A stretch of DNA of 61,434 nt from Candidatus Levybacteria bacterium RIFCSPHIGHO2_01_FULL_38_26. GTDB lineage: Bacteria; Patescibacteriota; Microgenomatia; Levybacterales; UBA12049. Shown piece by piece: positions 11,476-61,434 of the stretch. The notes beneath the pieces are model-generated. The model was given only the letters and a program-made list of their open reading frames with translations. It was not told the origin of the DNA and did not search any database. The position numbers and the translations under genes were made by a program. Each line of letters starts with the position of its first letter. Position 1 is the first letter of the stretch. The stretch is from contig MFNO01000037.1 in the NCBI GenBank assembly GCA_001782075.1, positions 1-61,434 on the forward strand. The letters run 5' to 3'.

Positions 11476-12387
11476 CTATATGTTTTTGTTAAGAAACTTG
11501 AGAACCTTTTCTTGATATTCTTGTCTGAGCTTTTCTGGCAATCCTCCATGAACGCCTTCCTCCTGGAAAAGGAACTCTGCTCTTGGGTTATTTTTTAAAG
11601 AATCTTTGATTCTAGTTGCGTTTTCAAATGGGATTACCTGGTCTTTTTTTGAATGAATAATAAGTATTGGAATTTGCAGGTTTTTTGCCGAAGCTTGCGG
11701 AGAAATTTCGCTTGGATAAACGCCGACAAAGATTTTAGCCCAAATTTTTGTCAGTGAAGATAAAGGATATTTAAATACAAACAGATTTTGATAGTATTCA
11801 TTTATCACAAGATCAAGATTGGCATAAGCGCTGTCCGAAACTACCGCATTTATTCTTGTATCCTTGGCCGCAGTCATGATCGCAACCGCGCCCCCTAAAG
11901 AAAATCCCATTATTCCTATTCTATCAAATCCCTGCCCGCCGGCAGGCAGGCTCCTTTTTTCCAGATAATCAAGCGCACTTGCAAGGTCTTTTTGTTCGTG
12001 GTATCCGACTGTGGTCATAGAACCTTCCGAATCTCCAAAATAGCGAAAGTCAAAAAATAAAAGATTAAAATCGTCGTGCAAAAATGATGCCCATCCTAAA
12101 ATGTTTGCCTTGTCGAAAGGATAACCGTGAAGAAGTATTATTGTCTTGTCCGAATTTTTTTCTGCCGGAACGAACCAGGCGGAAAGCCTGATATTATCGA
12201 TCGTGGTTAAATTTATGGCTTGAAAGCTCCATTCGAAGTCCTGAGGAGTTAAATTAGTTTTGTATTTTGGAGGATGGGTCGCCGACCAAAATCCATAAAG
12301 ACTAAAAACTATTATAAATAATGTAAAAAATAAAACAAACGGCAAAATCATTTTATATATTTTAGAGTTTTTAATCTTAAATTTCAT
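11476..12387 (-). CDS. membrane-anchored alpha/beta hydrolase (lipase/esterase-like)
   Basis: N-terminal TM helix, HGYP oxyanion-like region, nucleophile elbow GFSLGG. Confidence 0.75.
   Translation of the reverse strand: MKFKIKNSKIYKMILPFVLFFTLFIIVFSLYGFWSATHPPKYKTNLTPQDFEWSFQAINLTTIDNIRLSAWFVPAEKNSDKTIILLHGYPFDKANILGWASFLHDDFNLLFFDFRYFGDSEGSMTTVGYHEQKDLASALDYLEKRSLPAGGQGFDRIGIMGFSLGGAVAIMTAAKDTRINAVVSDSAYANLDLVINEYYQNLFVFKYPLSSLTKIWAKIFVGVYPSEISPQASAKNLQIPILIIHSKKDQVIPFENATRIKDSLKNNPRAEFLFQEEGVHGGLPEKLRQEYQEKVLKFLNKNI
11931..11950. repeat. 20-nt GC-rich near-palindrome CCTGCCCGCCGGCAGGCAGG inside the hydrolase CDS; it contains the 10-mer GGCGGGCAGG (reverse strand) shared with 25249-25258 and 61274-61283
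   Basis: Read directly. It encodes LPAGGQG in frame. CCTGCC/GGCAGG can form a hairpin. Confidence 0.7.
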
Positions 12388-24498: not shown

Positions 24499-25101
24499 TT
24501 AATTGTAAGGATTCCTTACTAAGCCCATTGATCCTGGCGGCCAGTAAATAAAAAACGATTTACCAATAATTAGTCTTCTATCAACAAAACCCCATTCTCT
24601 AGAATCTGAACTATTTAATCTATTGTCTCCCAGTACAAAAAATTCGTCTTTATTTGTTTTTACTTCTTGATTTTCTTTAATAAATGTTCCAGGTTTTGTC
24701 TGAATAGACGCGTTAAGGTATGAACTTTCATCAAGCAGTTTGCCATTAATATAAACATTTCCACTTTTTATTAATATAGTATCTCCAGGGATCCCGATTA
24801 CCCTTTTTATGAAATCCCTGTCTGGATTTGCCGGTGATTTAAATACTATTACGTCTCCAAGTTTAACATCTTCGAAGTGAAGCCCGATTATATTTGTAAT
24901 TACATACTCTTTGTCGTGAAAATTTGGATACATGGAATTGCCGTTGACCTGGAAGGGACGAAATAAAAAAACATAAATTACCAAGAATACAGCCGCGGCT
25001 AAAAGAAGAGTTTGGATAATATCAAGAAAGAATGAATAGATTTTGCGAAGTATGTCAAGAACCATGAATTGTATTCTCTTAAATTCTACAAGTTTTGTCA
25101 A
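24499..25101 (-). CDS. lepB: signal peptidase I
   Basis: GNSMYP (catalytic Ser), KRVIGIPGD (catalytic Lys), GDNRLNSSDSR. Confidence 0.9.
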   Translation of the reverse strand: MTKLVEFKRIQFMVLDILRKIYSFFLDIIQTLLLAAAVFLVIYVFLFRPFQVNGNSMYPNFHDKEYVITNIIGLHFEDVKLGDVIVFKSPANPDRDFIKRVIGIPGDTILIKSGNVYINGKLLDESSYLNASIQTKPGTFIKENQEVKTNKDEFFVLGDNRLNSSDSREWGFVDRRLIIGKSFFIYWPPGSMGLVRNPYN

Positions 25102-25123
25102 TGAGCTAGATTTATGCTAAGAT
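25095..25123 (+). promoter_or_regulatory. putative promoter for the tRNA-Thr/Val locus (TTGTCA-N17-TGcTAAGAT)
   Basis: -35 at 25095-25100, extended -10 at 25115-25123. The predicted start lies a few nt before 25134. Confidence 0.4.
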
Positions 25124-25153
25124 ATTTGAAATCGGACTCGTGGTTCAGTGGTA

Positions 25154-25256
25154 GACCCGCCTGCACTGGCCGATTGGCTCAGTTGGTTAGAGCGCTTCAT
25201 TCACATTGAAGAGGCCGGAGGTTCGAATCCTCCATCGGCCACAGTTATGGCGGGCA
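25154..25256 (+). other. intervening sequence in the tRNA-Thr D-loop: GA-CCCGCC-TGCACT-[tRNA-Val]-CAGTTAT-GGCGGG-CA
   Basis: A 6-bp GC clamp (25156-25161 with 25249-25254) encloses the nested tRNA. Confidence 0.6.
25168..25241 (+). tRNA. tRNA-Val(CAC), canonical 74-nt cloverleaf nested inside the tRNA-Thr gene
   Basis: GGCCGAT TG GCTC AGTTGGTTA GAGC G CTTCA TTCACAT TGAAG AGGCC GGAGG TTCGAAT CCTCC ATCGGCC A. Confidence 0.9.
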
Positions 25257-25313
25257 GGACGTCTCGTTCGTATCGAGAAGGTCGAAGGTTCGATCCCTTC
25301 CGAGTCCACCGCG

Positions 25314-26357
25314 ATGACAATTCTTTTTTTCTCCCGTCTATTTCTTCCTCATATTGGTGGAGTTGAAAAACATGTATTTGAATTGAGTAAAGAATTAATA
25401 AAAAAAAATTACAAAATTATAGTCGTGACAGAAAAAAATCAGTTGAATAACTCGAGTGCTAAAATCACGGGTGAAATAGACGGCATAAAAATTTACAGAA
25501 TCGATGCGGGCGGTGAAAATGTTTTTAAAAAGTTTAGGGTTTGGTGGTGGTTATGGCAGAATAGACACTTAATTGAAAATGCAGACATTGTTCATTGTCA
25601 TGACGTGTTTTTTTGGTATATCCCTTTTCGATTTTTATATCCCAACAAGCCAATCTACACAACTTTTCATGGATACGAAACAAAATTTCCTCCGTCAAAA
25701 AAAGCTATTTTTATACGTAAGGTCAGTGAGAGACTGTCTTGGGGAAATATTTGCGTTGGAGATTATATCAAAAAATGGTATGGAACAAGGCCTAACTTAG
25801 TAACTTACGGCGGAGTTGATATCGGAAAAATCCGAAATTTGAATATCGAAATTCGAAACAAAATCAAAATTTTATTTATCGGAAGATTAGAAAAAGATAC
25901 GGGAGTTTTAAATTATTTAAAGGTTTTGGAACTAATGAGAAAGAGAAAAATTAAATTTGATCTTGAAGCGTGTGGAGATGGTAGTTTGAAAAAAATGGTT
26001 GAGGACTATGGGAAAGTGAATGGATTCGTAGATGATTTAAACACCTACATAGAGAAAGCAGATATTGTTTTTGCGAGTTCATACTTGTCAATTCTTGAGG
26101 CAATGGCTGCCAAAAAACTGGTTTTTTGTGCATATGATAACAAGCTTAAAGAGGATTATCTCAAAATGTCGCCTTTTGCAAAATGGATTGTGATCGAAGA
26201 TTCTTCGACTAAACTTTCCGATAAAGTTTGGTATTTTATACAGCATAAAAAAGAGAAAGATAAAGTTGTCCATGATGCTTATGAATGGGTAAAAAAGCAG
26301 ACATGGAAGAAAGTGGCAGATCGTTATATTAATCTTTGGGGGCTGCAAATCTTATGA
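25314..26357 (+). CDS. GT4-family (GT-B) glycosyltransferase
   Basis: N-terminus MTILFFSRLFLPHIGGVEKH is typical of GT4. The ORF-track N-terminal extension from 25206 is a read-through of the tRNA genes. Confidence 0.85.
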   Translation: MTILFFSRLFLPHIGGVEKHVFELSKELIKKNYKIIVVTEKNQLNNSSAKITGEIDGIKIYRIDAGGENVFKKFRVWWWLWQNRHLIENADIVHCHDVFFWYIPFRFLYPNKPIYTTFHGYETKFPPSKKAIFIRKVSERLSWGNICVGDYIKKWYGTRPNLVTYGGVDIGKIRNLNIEIRNKIKILFIGRLEKDTGVLNYLKVLELMRKRKIKFDLEACGDGSLKKMVEDYGKVNGFVDDLNTYIEKADIVFASSYLSILEAMAAKKLVFCAYDNKLKEDYLKMSPFAKWIVIEDSSTKLSDKVWYFIQHKKEKDKVVHDAYEWVKKQTWKKVADRYINLWGLQIL

Positions 26358-36454: not shown

Positions 36455-37656
36455 AGATACTGACTGCGGTTCTAATTTTGCTGTTTCCGCTTGGAGAATT
36501 GGGTCGTTTTAATATCTATAATGAAATTTTCACAACACTAAATGATATTTTGGTTGGAGTAGTTGTGATTTATTGGTTGATTTTAATAGTTTGGAAAAAT
36601 AAATTGACAGAACTCTCAAAAAAAAAATTATCAAAACCTATTTTAATCTTCATTTTTATTGCTTTTTTATCGTTAATGCTAAATTATCTTAATCTCAAGA
36701 CGGAAGAATTAATCGGCTCATTTTTGTATATTTTACGTTTTGCTGCTTATGTGTCTTTGTATTTTGTAGTAAGCTCATTTGGTCATGATTTTAGAAAAAA
36801 AATTATCTATTTGATGATAGTTTCTGGTGCTTTAGTTATATTGGGAGGTTTTGTTCAGTATTTTTTATACTCTAATCTTGGTAACTTGTACTACTTAGGT
36901 TGGGACGAGCATCTCTATCGGTTATTTTCAAGCTTTCTGGATCCAAATTTTGCTGCATCTATTATTTCATTGTTTTTGACTCTTGTTCTATCAATATTAT
37001 TTTTCAAATTAGAAAAAAGCAAAAAAATCCGATTAGCACTAGTTTTATTATCTGTCTTGGCCTTCACTGCTTTGCTTCTGACCTACTCAAGAAGCGGTTA
37101 TCTGATGGCTATCACAAGCGTACTGGTGCTGCTGTTTTTGCTTGGTAAGAAAAAACATATTGTTATTTTGTTTGCTATTTTTATTTTGGGAATAGTATTT
37201 ATCCCAAAAGACTTTGGTGGAGAGGGTGTCAGGCTGTTAAGAACTGCGTCATTAGTTTCAAGATTTGAGTATTTAGACAACGCCGTAACAATATTTAAAG
37301 ATAATCCAATTTTTGGCGTTGGATTTAACGCATACAGATATGCTCAGTATAGATATGGATTTCTCGACGGTGACAGTTTGCGAACTAGCCATTCTGGTGC
37401 GGGGACTGATAATAGCCTCTTATTTGTTTTGGCAACAACTGGGATTATTGGGTTTGCTTCCTATTTGTATATCTGGTTTAGGGTTATAAAAAATCATTCC
37501 AGTGTGCAGAATAATAGATACCAAAGGATGATATCTGTGGCTGTTGTTGCCTCAATTGTAGGACTTTTTGTCAATGCTCTTTTCATTAATAGTCTTTCTT
37601 ATCCTTTTGTTATGGAGTGGATGTGGATTCTGATAGGAATTAGGGAGAGTAAGTAA
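36442..37656 (+). CDS. O-antigen ligase / Wzy_C-domain membrane protein
   Basis: LLTYSRSGYLM and RTSHSGAGTDNSLL motifs in a ~10-TM protein. GTG start overlaps the upstream stop. Confidence 0.75.
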   Translation: MALLKILTAVLILLFPLGELGRFNIYNEIFTTLNDILVGVVVIYWLILIVWKNKLTELSKKKLSKPILIFIFIAFLSLMLNYLNLKTEELIGSFLYILRFAAYVSLYFVVSSFGHDFRKKIIYLMIVSGALVILGGFVQYFLYSNLGNLYYLGWDEHLYRLFSSFLDPNFAASIISLFLTLVLSILFFKLEKSKKIRLALVLLSVLAFTALLLTYSRSGYLMAITSVLVLLFLLGKKKHIVILFAIFILGIVFIPKDFGGEGVRLLRTASLVSRFEYLDNAVTIFKDNPIFGVGFNAYRYAQYRYGFLDGDSLRTSHSGAGTDNSLLFVLATTGIIGFASYLYIWFRVIKNHSSVQNNRYQRMISVAVVASIVGLFVNALFINSLSYPFVMEWMWILIGIRESK

Positions 37657-38356
37657 CTGAAAGTTTTTTTTCTGTTTTGTTTCCAGCTCGGTCAGCAGCC
37701 TCTATTTTTATTTCGTTCAATCCTTCTTTTAACATCAAATTGTATGAAAAGTTGTTTTCCTCATCTATTACCGCCCAAAAACCGTTTATTGTTACTCTTA
37801 CCTGAGGATCTGTTTTTCCCTTAACTTCAGCTATGTTTTGGTCTTTTGAATAGGAGTCATTGTTTGATGGACTGGATACCTCAAGGGTTGGAGGAGTACT
37901 TTTGAAAACAATTATTAAATTTTGGGAAAATTCACTTTCTTTACCTTCGGGATTAACTGCTTTGGCTTTAACAATATTCTCATCTCTTGAAAGGGCAATT
38001 TCTGAGGAGAAATTTCCATCCTCACCTGCTGAAATCTTATCGGCAATATTCCCGTTTACGTAAACAACAACTGTATTTTTAGCCAGAGTTGATCCTTTTA
38101 TCGTGGTGGTGGCGCTATTTGTTGCCATATCTTGGGTGGTAAATATAGGAGCAGGGATAAATGTAGTTTGATTCGTGTTTTTTGACTCCTGGTTTGCTCT
38201 GGAACCCGATATAAAAAGGCTGAAGTTAACCAGAAGGGGGATTCCAAATTTAACCAAAAGAAAAATCACTGCGATTATCCCTAAGATACTCCAGAACAAA
38301 TTTACTAGCGACTTTTTCGCCTGTCTTTTAGTAAGCCTTGATCTATTCATATGCAT
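37640..38356 (-). CDS. membrane-anchored extracytoplasmic protein with two Ig-like (Big-type) repeats
   Basis: N-terminal TM helix. Two ~80-aa beta-rich repeats (VVVYVNG...AKAVNPEG and VRVTINGF...IEAADRAGN). ATG at 38356, 3 nt after the tRNA-Thr 3' end. Confidence 0.5.
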   Translation of the reverse strand: MHMNRSRLTKRQAKKSLVNLFWSILGIIAVIFLLVKFGIPLLVNFSLFISGSRANQESKNTNQTTFIPAPIFTTQDMATNSATTTIKGSTLAKNTVVVYVNGNIADKISAGEDGNFSSEIALSRDENIVKAKAVNPEGKESEFSQNLIIVFKSTPPTLEVSSPSNNDSYSKDQNIAEVKGKTDPQVRVTINGFWAVIDEENNFSYNLMLKEGLNEIKIEAADRAGNKTEKKLSVTYSP

Positions 38357-38359
38357 CGG

Positions 38360-38431
38360 AGCCAACGGTGAGAATCGAACTCACGGCCTAGTGTTTACGA
38401 AACACTTGCTCTTCCACTGAGCTACGTTGGC
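38360..38431 (-). tRNA. tRNA-Thr(CGU), canonical 72 nt
   Basis: Reverse complement reads GCCAACG TA GCTC AGTGGAA GAGC A AGTGT TTCGTAA ACACT AGGCC GTGAG TTCGATT CTCAC CGTTGGC T. Confidence 0.9.
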
Positions 38432-42723: not shown

Positions 42724-44980
<2,257 letters not shown>

Positions 44981-61054: not shown

Positions 61055-61240
61055 CTTTTTTGTTTCACAAAAAAAGCGAGGCTCGCCTCTGAGGACACAA
61101 GGATCATTTGGTATGCTTATTTTACCACTTCTTGGTATACTTAAGCCATGAAATTAACCAATTATCCAAAAGTTGATGAAGCCATAAAGAAATTGATACT
61201 TTTGAGATAGTCTTTAAAATCTTCGAGTCATCGTGCTCAA

Positions 61241-61283
61241 ACCCGCCTGCAAGCGCCTGGAACGCTAGCGACTGGCGGGCAGG
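61241..61283. repeat. GC-rich bipartite element ACCCGCCTGCA-N21-TGGCGGGCAGG, with both 11-nt arms identical to the flanks of the tRNA-Thr D-loop insert
   Basis: 61241-61251 equals 25155-25165, and 61273-61283 equals 25248-25258. An inner hairpin is AGCG CCTGGAA CGCT. Confidence 0.8.
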
Positions 61284-61315: not shown

Positions 61316-61434
61316 TTATCTTTTCTCAAAAAGCACGGTTTCTCCTCTGAGGACTTTTTGGACATCTGTCTCAGTAACCGATCTAGAAGTTTTTACGGAA
61401 GTTACTCTAACAGCAGGGTTTTCTCCGATTGCTT
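61316..61434 (-). CDS. 3' end of an unidentified CDS running off the window (...AIGENPAVRVTSVKTSRSVTETDVQKVLRGETVLFEKR*)
   Basis: Open frame to the window edge with a TAA stop at 61316-61318. No family recognised. Confidence 0.35.
   Translation of the reverse strand, partial: AIGENPAVRVTSVKTSRSVTETDVQKVLRGETVLFEKR

Follow-up and report, generated by a model that had tools for sequence, protein, structure and literature searches.

Interrupted transfer RNA (tRNA) genes are known from archaea, from eukaryotes and from bacteria, the bacterial ones being interrupted by group I introns. What is to be made of a bacterial tRNA gene whose interruption is itself a complete tRNA gene? The question is raised by a locus in 61,434 nucleotides (nt) of the genome of an uncultured groundwater bacterium, Candidatus Levybacteria. 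This whole stretch is called the window here, and all coordinates are window positions. At 25134–25308, a tRNA-Val(CAC) lies between two pieces that, when joined, make a tRNA with the threonine anticodon CGT. A reading made from the sequence alone had described the locus as a tRNA-Val nested in the D loop of a tRNA-Thr gene, and it left open whether the outer gene is rejoined, split or inactivated. The answer we favor is that a small mobile cassette, carrying its own tRNA-Val, disrupted a resident tRNA-Val gene, and that the gene it split survives more probably as a dead shell than as a tRNA restored by splicing.

Sequences and Comparisons

Comparison loci carry L numbers. The main scan covered 80 syntenic loci anchored on the glycosyltransferase (GT) gene that follows the nested locus. 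A first scan added four tRNA-Val loci (L001, L005, L007, and L008), and some contigs recur among the 80. Model R1 is a covariance model built from the tRNA-Vals of Levybacteria. Scans of sequence collections for cassette ends accepted exact matches only, and diverged copies will have been missed. For several alignments and counts of identity, tool output was read by eye or counted by hand.

A tRNA Within a tRNA

In the native sequence, ARAGORN and Rfam call only the tRNA-Val(CAC), at 25168–25241/2, with an Rfam score of 73 bits. When 103 nt (25156–25258) are removed in silico, ARAGORN calls a textbook 72-nt tRNA-Thr(cgt), just as the sequence-only reading had drawn it. The orphan 3′ piece, 25252–25308, scores 43 bits with model R1 (E about 1e-10), which is far beyond chance. 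In the predicted fold of the 175-nt RNA, outer and inner arms are all intact (z = −3.35), and the GC clamp CCCGCC/GGCGGG closes around the canonical inner tRNA, again in agreement with the earlier description. CCA is encoded by neither the outer nor the inner tRNA.

The locus is not an accident of assembly. An exact copy of the downstream GT protein is found on 11 contigs. The 262-nt region around the nest is base-identical in six assemblies that differ in sample and assembler: megahit contigs from four samples in ENA, JGI 3300002502, and the ANAN16 scaffold. With this identity across independent assemblies, a chimera is ruled out. A single species is the source of all copies of the window locus. 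The closest relatives of the GT all belong to Candidatus Levybacteria/Levyibacteriota, in the Candidate Phyla Radiation (CPR), and none has an identity between 66% and 100% to the window's GT.

Junctions and Family of the Outer Gene

Where exactly is the outer gene cut? The sequence-only reading placed the junctions after GGTA and before GGAC, that is, around an insert at 25154–25256 in the D loop. This placement is an alternative of equal length, shifted by 2 nt, in which the joined gene reads GGTA-GGACG. The cassette present in L091 and L117 sets the window junctions at 25155/25156 and 25258/25259; the left junction reads GGTAGA, then CCCGCC, and the right junction GGCGGGCAGG, then ACG. Since L117 has the same cassette in the same place, between TAGA and GC, the window junctions are fixed between nt 23 and 24, on the 3′ side of the D stem. 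The nested architecture thus stands, and the D-loop site does not. The 5′ exon runs from the 5′ strand of the acceptor stem through the 5′ strand of the D stem and the D loop, and stops 2 nt into the 3′ strand of that stem. At the junction, the joined outer tRNA reads CAGUGGUAGA followed by ACGUCUCG, also given as CAGTGGTAGA followed by ACGTCTCG, and its D stem is a perfect GTTC/GAAC, as in type-A tRNA-Vals.

These types are as follows. Of the 80 syntenic loci, 22 have a lone tRNA-Val(CAC) with the same promoter before it and the GT start codon after it. Type-A bodies are 72 nt long, with the D loop AGYGGTA and the acceptor stem GGAYYCG; type-B bodies are 74–75 nt long, with the D loop AGYTGGTTA and the acceptor stem GGSCNNN. 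The tRNA-Val(CAC) genes of L001, L005, and L007 have exactly the acceptor stem of the outer gene in the window, GGACTCG/CGAGTCC-A. The outer D arm matches L036 and L023, and 57 of 72 aligned positions (79%, hand count) are identical to the type-A tRNA-Val of L079. The alignment of the outer gene with the same genome's canonical tRNA-Thr(CGU) is poor. It follows from the acceptor stem, the alignment and the poor threonine likeness that the "Thr" gene is a resident member of the Val family with a CGT anticodon. By its sequence, then, the outer gene is a member of the type-A tRNA-Val(CAC) family and not an ordinary tRNA-Thr, as had been supposed. The locus holds no contiguous tRNA-Thr(CGU) cloverleaf, which appears only after the in silico removal, and the outer body groups with type-A tRNA-Val(CAC) and not with the threonine tRNAs of the lineage. 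Two transitions separate the outer anticodon CGT (25269–25271) from CAC. The inner gene is of type B and nearly identical to the lone tRNA-Val of L068.

The second tRNA-Thr(CGU), which the earlier reading had noted at 38360–38431, is canonical by both ARAGORN and Rfam, and its presence makes a CGU-reading outer tRNA redundant. An uninterrupted homologue of the outer gene was not found, and the closest GT relatives (63–66% identity) have a simple tRNA-Val, or none, adjoining the GT gene. Among GTDB representative genomes, the first 20 nt of the outer gene occur elsewhere only in one Woesearchaeote tRNA-Val(GAC). On a Woesearchaeota contig (L017, 2757–2828), a tRNA-Val(GAC) agrees with the type-A tRNA-Vals of Levybacteria over the first 24 nt and through most of the body. 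The likeness could be convergence, or it could be the product of a transfer between DPANN archaea and CPR bacteria.

A Family of Cassettes

The insert in the window, named c2, is 103 bp long and consists of CCCGCCTGCACT, the tRNA-Val and CAGTTATGGCGGGCAGG. The fold predicts pairing of its ends, in the 6-bp clamp or, alternatively, in a flush (CCYG)2/(CRGG)2 helix of 8 bp. Written as CCCGCCTG...CGGGCAGG, they comprise two copies of CCYG at the left and two of CRGG at the right, matching at six of eight positions as inverted repeats. That is, c2 has terminal inverted repeats (TIRs), as do TIR transposons and miniature inverted-repeat transposable elements (MITEs).

The same cassette interrupts tRNA-Val genes in two other genomes, at the D-stem site in L117 and in the anticodon loop, between nt 37 and 38, in L091. 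The ends in the window are identical to those in L091 at 29 of 29 positions and to those in L117 at 28 of 29. The cargo differs at 10 (L091) and 12 (L117) of its 74 nt, an identity of 84–86%, largely in compensatory stem pairs (hand count). The GT proteins of L048, L091, and other syntenic relatives are 43–50% identical to the window's; the L117 contig is without a GT. Since the ends are more conserved than the cargo, it is likely that they are read sequence-specifically.

A sister cassette, c1, has the layout CCTGCCCGACTTTG(TG)AAT, tRNA-Val, CA(CA)AAGTCCAGTCAGGCGGG. Its ends, CCTGCCCG...CAGGCGGG, have the same two motifs as those of c2 in the opposite order relative to the cargo. The c1 cassette is found between nt 37 and 38 in L048 and L091 and between nt 23 and 24 in L036. 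Between the L048 and L091 copies, the c1 helix has lost TG from one strand and CA from the other, with the pairing kept.

Frames without a tRNA also occur. The window contains one, c0, a 42-nt GC-rich palindromic element flanked by a tRNA-Gly and by a convergent gene, the latter at its 3′ end, and present also in assembly L173. No Rfam match to c0 was obtained, even at E = 10. We considered whether c0 is the P3 stem of an RNase P RNA, and ruled this out on the lack of an Rfam match at that threshold and the intergenic position next to the convergent gene. On both sides of the c0 region (61085–61095 and 61345–61355), an A-rich run is followed by the motif CCTCTGAGGAC, within which is the palindrome CCTCTGAGG. 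In L070 (1317–1418), a type-A 5′ relic, GGATCCGTAACTCAGAGGTA, is followed by a tRNA-less insert of ~70 nt closed by the 7-bp clamp CCCCGCA/TGCGGGG. The clamped insert follows GGTA, and an intact type-B tRNA-Val comes next.

At none of six insertion sites is there a target-site duplication, and removal of the cassette restores the exact tRNA. On the 5′ side, the insertion follows TAGA at three sites, CACA or CATA at three, and CAAA at c0, a loose YANA pattern only. In the 64 kb of the window genome there are two copies, c2 and the tRNA-less c0. A GTDB-wide, host-blind scan with the c2 right end gave 61 matches, about the number expected by chance, and only two of these are real, L114 (on the L091 contig) and L117. 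The same end found three chance matches, in GC-rich coding DNA, among JGI metagenome contigs. Viral contigs scanned with the inner tRNA-Val, the outer anticodon arm and both cassette ends returned nothing or chance matches only. The composite locus, compared with phage and plasmid records, showed only generic tRNA similarity to the inner tRNA-Val. A match to both end motifs in L136 was set aside as chance, as it lies inside a conserved helicase-like coding region (PriA, assigned by eye). Likewise, the CCYGCCYG matches at 11931 and 13761 of the window are codons for GGQ/AGR-type peptides; the motif also matches at 44185 and 55944.

Nesting and Decay in Related Genomes

The deepest nest is at 363–647 of L091, the same contig as L114, where three levels are found with all stems intact (fold z = −4.3). 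Level 1 is a Val-type tRNA with a type-B-like body and the anticodon CAT, cut after nt 37 by a c1 cassette (CCTGCCCGACTTTGAAT, tRNA, CAAAGTCCAGTCAGGCGGG). Level 2, inside c1, is a type-A tRNA-Val(CAC), which is cut after nt 37 by c2 with its type-B tRNA-Val(CAC). In L048, c1 lies between nt 37 and 38 of a type-A tRNA-Val(CAC) and has another type-A tRNA-Val(CAC) inside. In L117, c2 occupies the D stem of a type-A tRNA-Val(CAC), and in L036, a degraded c1 occupies the D-stem site. The outer tRNA-Val(CAC) of L117 (1–46, minus strand) is cut again after nt 37 by an unrelated sequence, GTCAGTTTCTGTTCA..., of which the contig shows only 15 nt before it stops.

Among 180 loci, a screen for pairs of T loops separated by less than 60 nt (GGTTCRANNC-N30-58-GGTTCRANNC) picked out exactly the intact nests. 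Model R1 detected the orphan exons in the window, L036, L048, and L091. The interrupted hosts are all tRNAs of the Val(CAC) type at this locus, and the two real matches of the GTDB-wide scan are included in this statement. Transcripts of the nested loci have fold z-scores from −3.4 to −5.3, with all the nested cloverleaves kept.

Decaying or relic outer exons are found at five further loci. The outer gene of L036 has a C4·A69 acceptor mismatch, G1·U72, two G·U pairs in the T stem, a broken flank helix, and the anticodon CGC. In L079, AT-rich, barely recognizable exons surround an intact type-A tRNA-Val. L068 retains a 5′ relic and the c2 left end, the right side being deleted; in L070, only the 5′ 20 nt of the outer exon are left; and L021 has a 3′ relic containing GTCAGGC-CGAGAAGGTCGGAG. 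This series shows a shell that would usually be dispensable.

A Proposed Self-Complementing Cassette

We propose that a mobile, self-complementing tRNA-Val cassette disrupted the resident tRNA-Val gene and that the inner tRNA-Val alone matures. We give this reading a probability of about 0.6. The cassette c2, moved in trans by an enzyme, would have inserted at the DNA level into a resident type-A tRNA-Val gene between lepB and the GT operon, cutting it between nt 23 and 24. A single promoter would drive the transcript of the nested locus. In bacterial tRNA maturation, RNase P and RNase Z release the tRNA and CCA is added; by this route, the inner tRNA-Val would be freed, and the outer pieces would be leader and trailer only, not rejoined. 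The outer "tRNA-Thr(CGU)" would then be the still-intact shell of a former tRNA-Val gene whose anticodon has changed from CAC. The sequence-only reading had offered inactivation by an inserted element as one possibility, and of its suggestions this one comes closest to the evidence, with the correction that the interrupted gene is a type-A tRNA-Val and not a tRNA-Thr.

Several observations agree with this proposal. Because the cassette brings its own tRNA-Val(CAC), its insertion is self-complementing. The restriction to Val hosts can be understood as survivorship. That is, insertion kills the host gene, and only the loss of a tRNA-Val(CAC) is rescued by a tRNA-Val(CAC) cargo. The inverted order of the ends in c1 and c2 and the tRNA-less copies (c0 and that of L070) come naturally to a DNA element and would be odd in a signal for RNA splicing. 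Inverted ends, lack of duplication, and frame-only copies fit a hairpin-ended or inverted-repeat DNA element. There is no known bacterial route by which the insert could be excised from the transcript, as Rfam finds no group I intron and reading of the sequence finds no bulge-helix-bulge (BHB) motif. The two tRNA-Val body types across the phylum may reflect repeated replacement by c1, with type-A cargo, and c2, with type-B cargo, followed by loss of the shell.

Other observations weigh against the proposal. The outer cloverleaf of the window is flawless, with 21 of 21 stem pairs and all the conserved D-loop and T-loop bases intact, and no stem defects are seen in the outer genes of L048, of L091 at both interrupted levels, or of L117 in its visible part. 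Unless every one of the insertions is recent, damage would be expected in dead genes. Three of the six hosts have changed at nt 35/36, to CGT in the window, CGC in L036, and CAT at level 1 of L091, which looks non-random. The D-stem pair 11-24, whose members lie on either side of the insertion, covaries between the window (T-A) and L117 (C-G); if the insertion was a single ancestral event, the split gene has been under selection for pairing. Target-site duplications are absent, only one extra frame copy is present in 64 kb, and a Pfam scan of 29 of the larger open reading frames (ORFs) of the window found no transposase or recombinase. The intact outer stems, the changes at nt 35/36, and the covarying pair would also fit recent insertions into already diverged alleles, together with selection against a defective product that still binds valyl-tRNA synthetase.

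Alternative Readings

According to the strongest rival, an endonuclease and a ligase would recognize the terminal helix and take the cassette out of the RNA, so that it would be a bacterial intervening sequence of a new kind. Removal would yield tRNA-Val(CAC) and a functional outer tRNA reading ACG (Thr) codons, so that nesting would act as a duplication that leaves one anticodon free to change. The perfect outer cloverleaves just described would be explained, as would the strong purifying selection on the cassette ends, the paired loss of TG and CA that preserves the c1 helix, and the clustering of changes at nt 35/36 in three hosts. Transcript folds keep every nested cloverleaf, the promoter is placed for the outer gene, and archaeal BHB introns also sit at several positions and transpose between tRNAs (Fujishima et al. 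2010, as cited in PMC10714607). On the other side, there is no BHB motif and there are no group I or group II features; cuts by RNase P and RNase Z would leave tails of 12 and 17 nt, not exon ends; and, relative to the transcript, c1 and c2 have their ends in opposite order. Copies of the bare frame are found outside tRNA genes, the hosts are of the Val type only, though a spliced intron should be tolerated in any tRNA, and the outer exons have decayed in five lineages. A canonical tRNA-Thr(CGU) is present. The pair C2-G71 is part of the identity set of Escherichia coli threonyl-tRNA synthetase, and the outer body has G2-C71 in its place. On balance, we regard removal from the RNA as unlikely. 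The name of a new intervening sequence, which the earlier reading had floated, is apt as a description of a cassette family found at two positions in several genomes, and the RNA removal that it implied is opposed by the observations listed here.

In its fullest form, this rival would have Levybacteria possess a protein-dependent tRNA splicing that recognizes the (CCYG)2/(CRGG)2 helix. A nested gene would then give two or three mature tRNAs, and the outer copy could exchange its Val anticodon CAC for another, the Thr anticodon CGU here and CAU or CGC in other genomes. We hold this, too, to be improbable. Even when every reading in which the outer tRNA is spliced or otherwise functional is counted together, a working outer tRNA seems unlikely to us.

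It is also conceivable, if quite improbable, that the interrupted gene was already reading CGU before the cassette arrived; that is, the cassette would have destroyed a Val-derived second threonine isoacceptor, a redundant gene. Two anticodon substitutions without other damage are unlikely as drift after insertion, a second tRNA-Thr(CGU) is present, and L021, among the closest relatives, has a relic 3′ exon with the same CGAGA-AGGTC anticodon stem and variable loop. Against this stand the lack of an uninterrupted CGU version in about 100 syntenic loci and the finding of a tRNA-Val(CAC) at the locus everywhere else. Without an earlier tRNA-Val(CAC) here, moreover, the genome would have needed another gene for it.

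The first suggestion of the sequence-only reading was that RNase P and RNase Z excise the tRNA-Val and that the outer halves stay associated or are ligated. In the version without ligation, the outer tRNA would work in two pieces, the halves being held by acceptor stem, D stem, and GC clamp, in the manner of ribosomal RNA (rRNA) fragmented by RNase III. In the fold, the clamp and the 7 + 4 outer base pairs would indeed hold the halves. The nick would fall inside the D stem, and a helix of the 12- and 17-nt ends would protrude from the tRNA core. In L048 and L091, furthermore, cassettes lie between nt 37 and 38, where an unligated anticodon loop cannot decode, so a general split-tRNA mechanism does not suit the cassette family. 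We consider it very improbable. Finally, the thought that assembly or binning joined reads of two tRNA genes, which are short and repeat-like, has practically nothing left to it, given the six assemblies from different samples and assemblers and the homologous nested loci in four other species.

Features of the Window

Table 1. Features of the nested locus and related elements in the window
Feature	Position	Strand	Basis or remark
Sigma-70-type promoter, TTGTCA-17-TAAGAT, with extended −10 TG	25095..25123	+	Sequence; same element in relatives
Outer tRNA, 5′ exon, nt 1–23 (GGACTCG TG GTTC AGTGGTA GA)	25134..25155	+	Acceptor stem as in L001, L005, L007
Cassette c2, left end, CCCGCCTGCACT	25156..25167	+	Identical in L091; one substitution in L117; relic in L068
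Inner complete tRNA-Val(CAC), type B, 9-nt D loop; c2 cargo	25168..25241	+	ARAGORN; Rfam, 73 bits; R1, 86.7 bits
Cassette c2, right end, CAGTTATGGCGGGCAGG	25242..25258	+	17/17 identical in L091 and L117
Outer tRNA, 3′ exon, nt 24–73 (AC G TCTCG TTCGTAT CGAGA AGGTC GAAGG TTCGATC CCTTC CGAGTCC A)	25259..25308	+	ARAGORN on joined sequence; R1, 43 bits
GT4-family glycosyltransferase gene, start 5 nt past outer tRNA	25314..26357	+	Synteny anchor for all comparisons
Canonical uninterrupted tRNA-Thr(CGU)	38360..38431	−	ARAGORN, Rfam
c0, tRNA-less copy of cassette ends, CCCGCCTGCA-20 nt-CTGGCGGGCAGG	61242..61283	+	Intergenic; without Rfam match

The coordinates are collected in Table 1. The single upstream promoter is as the sequence-only reading had it, and transcription is predicted to start 3–4 nt 5′ of the outer 5′ exon. 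In relatives, a TTGTCAA...TAAGAT/TAAAAT element lies 8–13 nt upstream of the outermost tRNA 5′ end. The arrangement of promoter, tRNA-Val, and a GT4 start codon 5–25 nt past the tRNA is conserved in many Levybacteria (window 25095–25316, syntenic loci L001–L101). Probably a single transcript covers the tRNA and the polysaccharide-synthesis operon, and tRNA processing separates them.

Upstream of the locus are rodA/ftsW, the genes for L21 and L27, parB, and lepB, and downstream is the polysaccharide GT operon. On the ANAN16 scaffold of the same species (L014, 1–2418), two sigma-70 genes adjoin lepB, replacing parB, L27, and L21. This difference from the window upstream of 24732 is a strain-level rearrangement with its breakpoint inside or next to lepB. 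Elsewhere in the window, an ORF with an Ig-like/glucodextranase domain (37640–38365, minus strand) begins within the 3′ end of the canonical tRNA-Thr(CGU), and the true start codon of this protein is probably further downstream.

Homologues of the GT (P0012, P0013, P0016, P0017, P0020, P0022, and P0051) contain low-complexity, in-frame inserts of 15–45 amino acid residues that recur at similar places, such as RDSGVAPLSGSPQNDGGERGV and DVHLGGAEVAASP...SEV. These look like translated insertion elements. They are without cassette ends; the CCYGCCYG motif is absent from the one GT-insert locus checked (L180).

Implications

Should the outer gene be a dead shell, the cassette would be a new kind of very small mobile element, one that avoids harm by bringing a replacement copy of the gene that it breaks. 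It would also drive the turnover of two tRNA-Val types at one locus across a phylum. Should the outer tRNA be spliced, bacteria would have their first case of tRNA splicing without a ribozyme, and there would be a new way for new isoacceptors to arise. Standard tRNA finders miss the outer genes and the relics, so tRNA counts in CPR genomes can be wrong, and gene callers translate through nested loci.

Comparison with Known Systems

The literature searched held no account of tRNA-in-tRNA genes or of tRNA introns in CPR bacteria and yielded only rRNA introns in CPR and the archaeal cases; the novelty claimed for the locus from its sequence has, accordingly, met no published precedent. A complete tRNA as the insert of a tRNA gene, nesting to three levels, and a self-compensating 100-bp cassette are features of none of the systems compared here.

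The transposing tRNA introns of the archaeal Thermoproteales (Fujishima et al. 2010, cited in PMC10714607) offer the nearest parallel. Like the cassettes, BHB introns are short, protein-less inserts in tRNA genes, found between nt 37 and 38 and in the D arm. One family occurs at different positions and in different tRNAs, and a gene may hold several introns. In contrast, the host here is a bacterium, the insert contains a complete tRNA, the hosts are of one isoacceptor, and neither junction has a BHB. For c2 in the window and L091 and for c1 in L048, drawing by hand in both registers gave no BHB motif (two 3-nt bulges separated by a 4-bp helix). Neither nt 32–35 nor the D-loop nt pair with the 3′ end of the insert in the BHB register, and the junctions abut a 6–8-bp GC helix. 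Neither an EndA splicing endonuclease nor an RtcB-type ligase is among the 29 larger ORFs of the window scanned with Pfam. The likeness to BHB introns and to Nanoarchaeum, which the GC-clamped halves had suggested at first sight, thus fails at the junctions.

The split and tri-split tRNAs of Nanoarchaeum equitans and Caldivirga maquilingensis resemble the locus in that GC-rich complementary flanks could hold the halves together. The archaeal halves, however, are separate genes with promoters of their own, joined in trans at a BHB, whereas the halves here lie 103 nt apart in cis, on one strand and under one promoter, around another tRNA.

Bacterial group I introns in tRNA anticodon loops are reviewed in PMC3984707. 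As with the cassettes, the insert is in a bacterial tRNA gene, in some cases in the anticodon loop, and a property of the element itself makes the insertion harmless. Here, in contrast, the insert is 103–115 nt long, lacks a ribozyme core, is found in the D stem as well, and would be made harmless by a replacement tRNA gene, not by self-splicing. A group I intron has a ribozyme core (P3–P9) and a length of more than about 200 nt; the 103-nt insert is a tRNA and 29 nt in a D stem, and a window-wide Rfam search at gathering thresholds returned tRNAs only.

The intron of an archaeal pre-tRNA-Trp houses a C/D box small RNA. There, as here, a stable RNA lies inside an insert in a tRNA gene and is released by processing; the archaeal case differs in being a BHB intron with a guide RNA as cargo.

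MITEs, repetitive extragenic palindromic (REP) sequences, and elements derived from IS200/IS605 are tiny and non-autonomous, with inverted or hairpin ends, and occur in several copies and in either orientation. Elements of the IS200/IS605 type make no target-site duplication; these and REP-like hairpin elements also have a fixed short target on the 5′ side of the insertion and a cognate Y1 transposase (TnpA/RAYT). The cassette's lack of duplication and hairpin-capable ends recall IS200/IS605-derived and REP-like elements; a transposase is, as noted above, missing from the window. Such elements are not known to carry a tRNA gene as cargo or to nest in a gene for the same isoacceptor.

Integrative elements and phages that target tRNA genes have in common with the cassette a self-complementing insertion into such a gene. 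They are kilobases in size, encode an integrase, duplicate the core of the attachment (att) site, and rebuild the same gene. The cassette, in contrast, is ~100 bp long, makes no duplication and supplies a whole separate tRNA.

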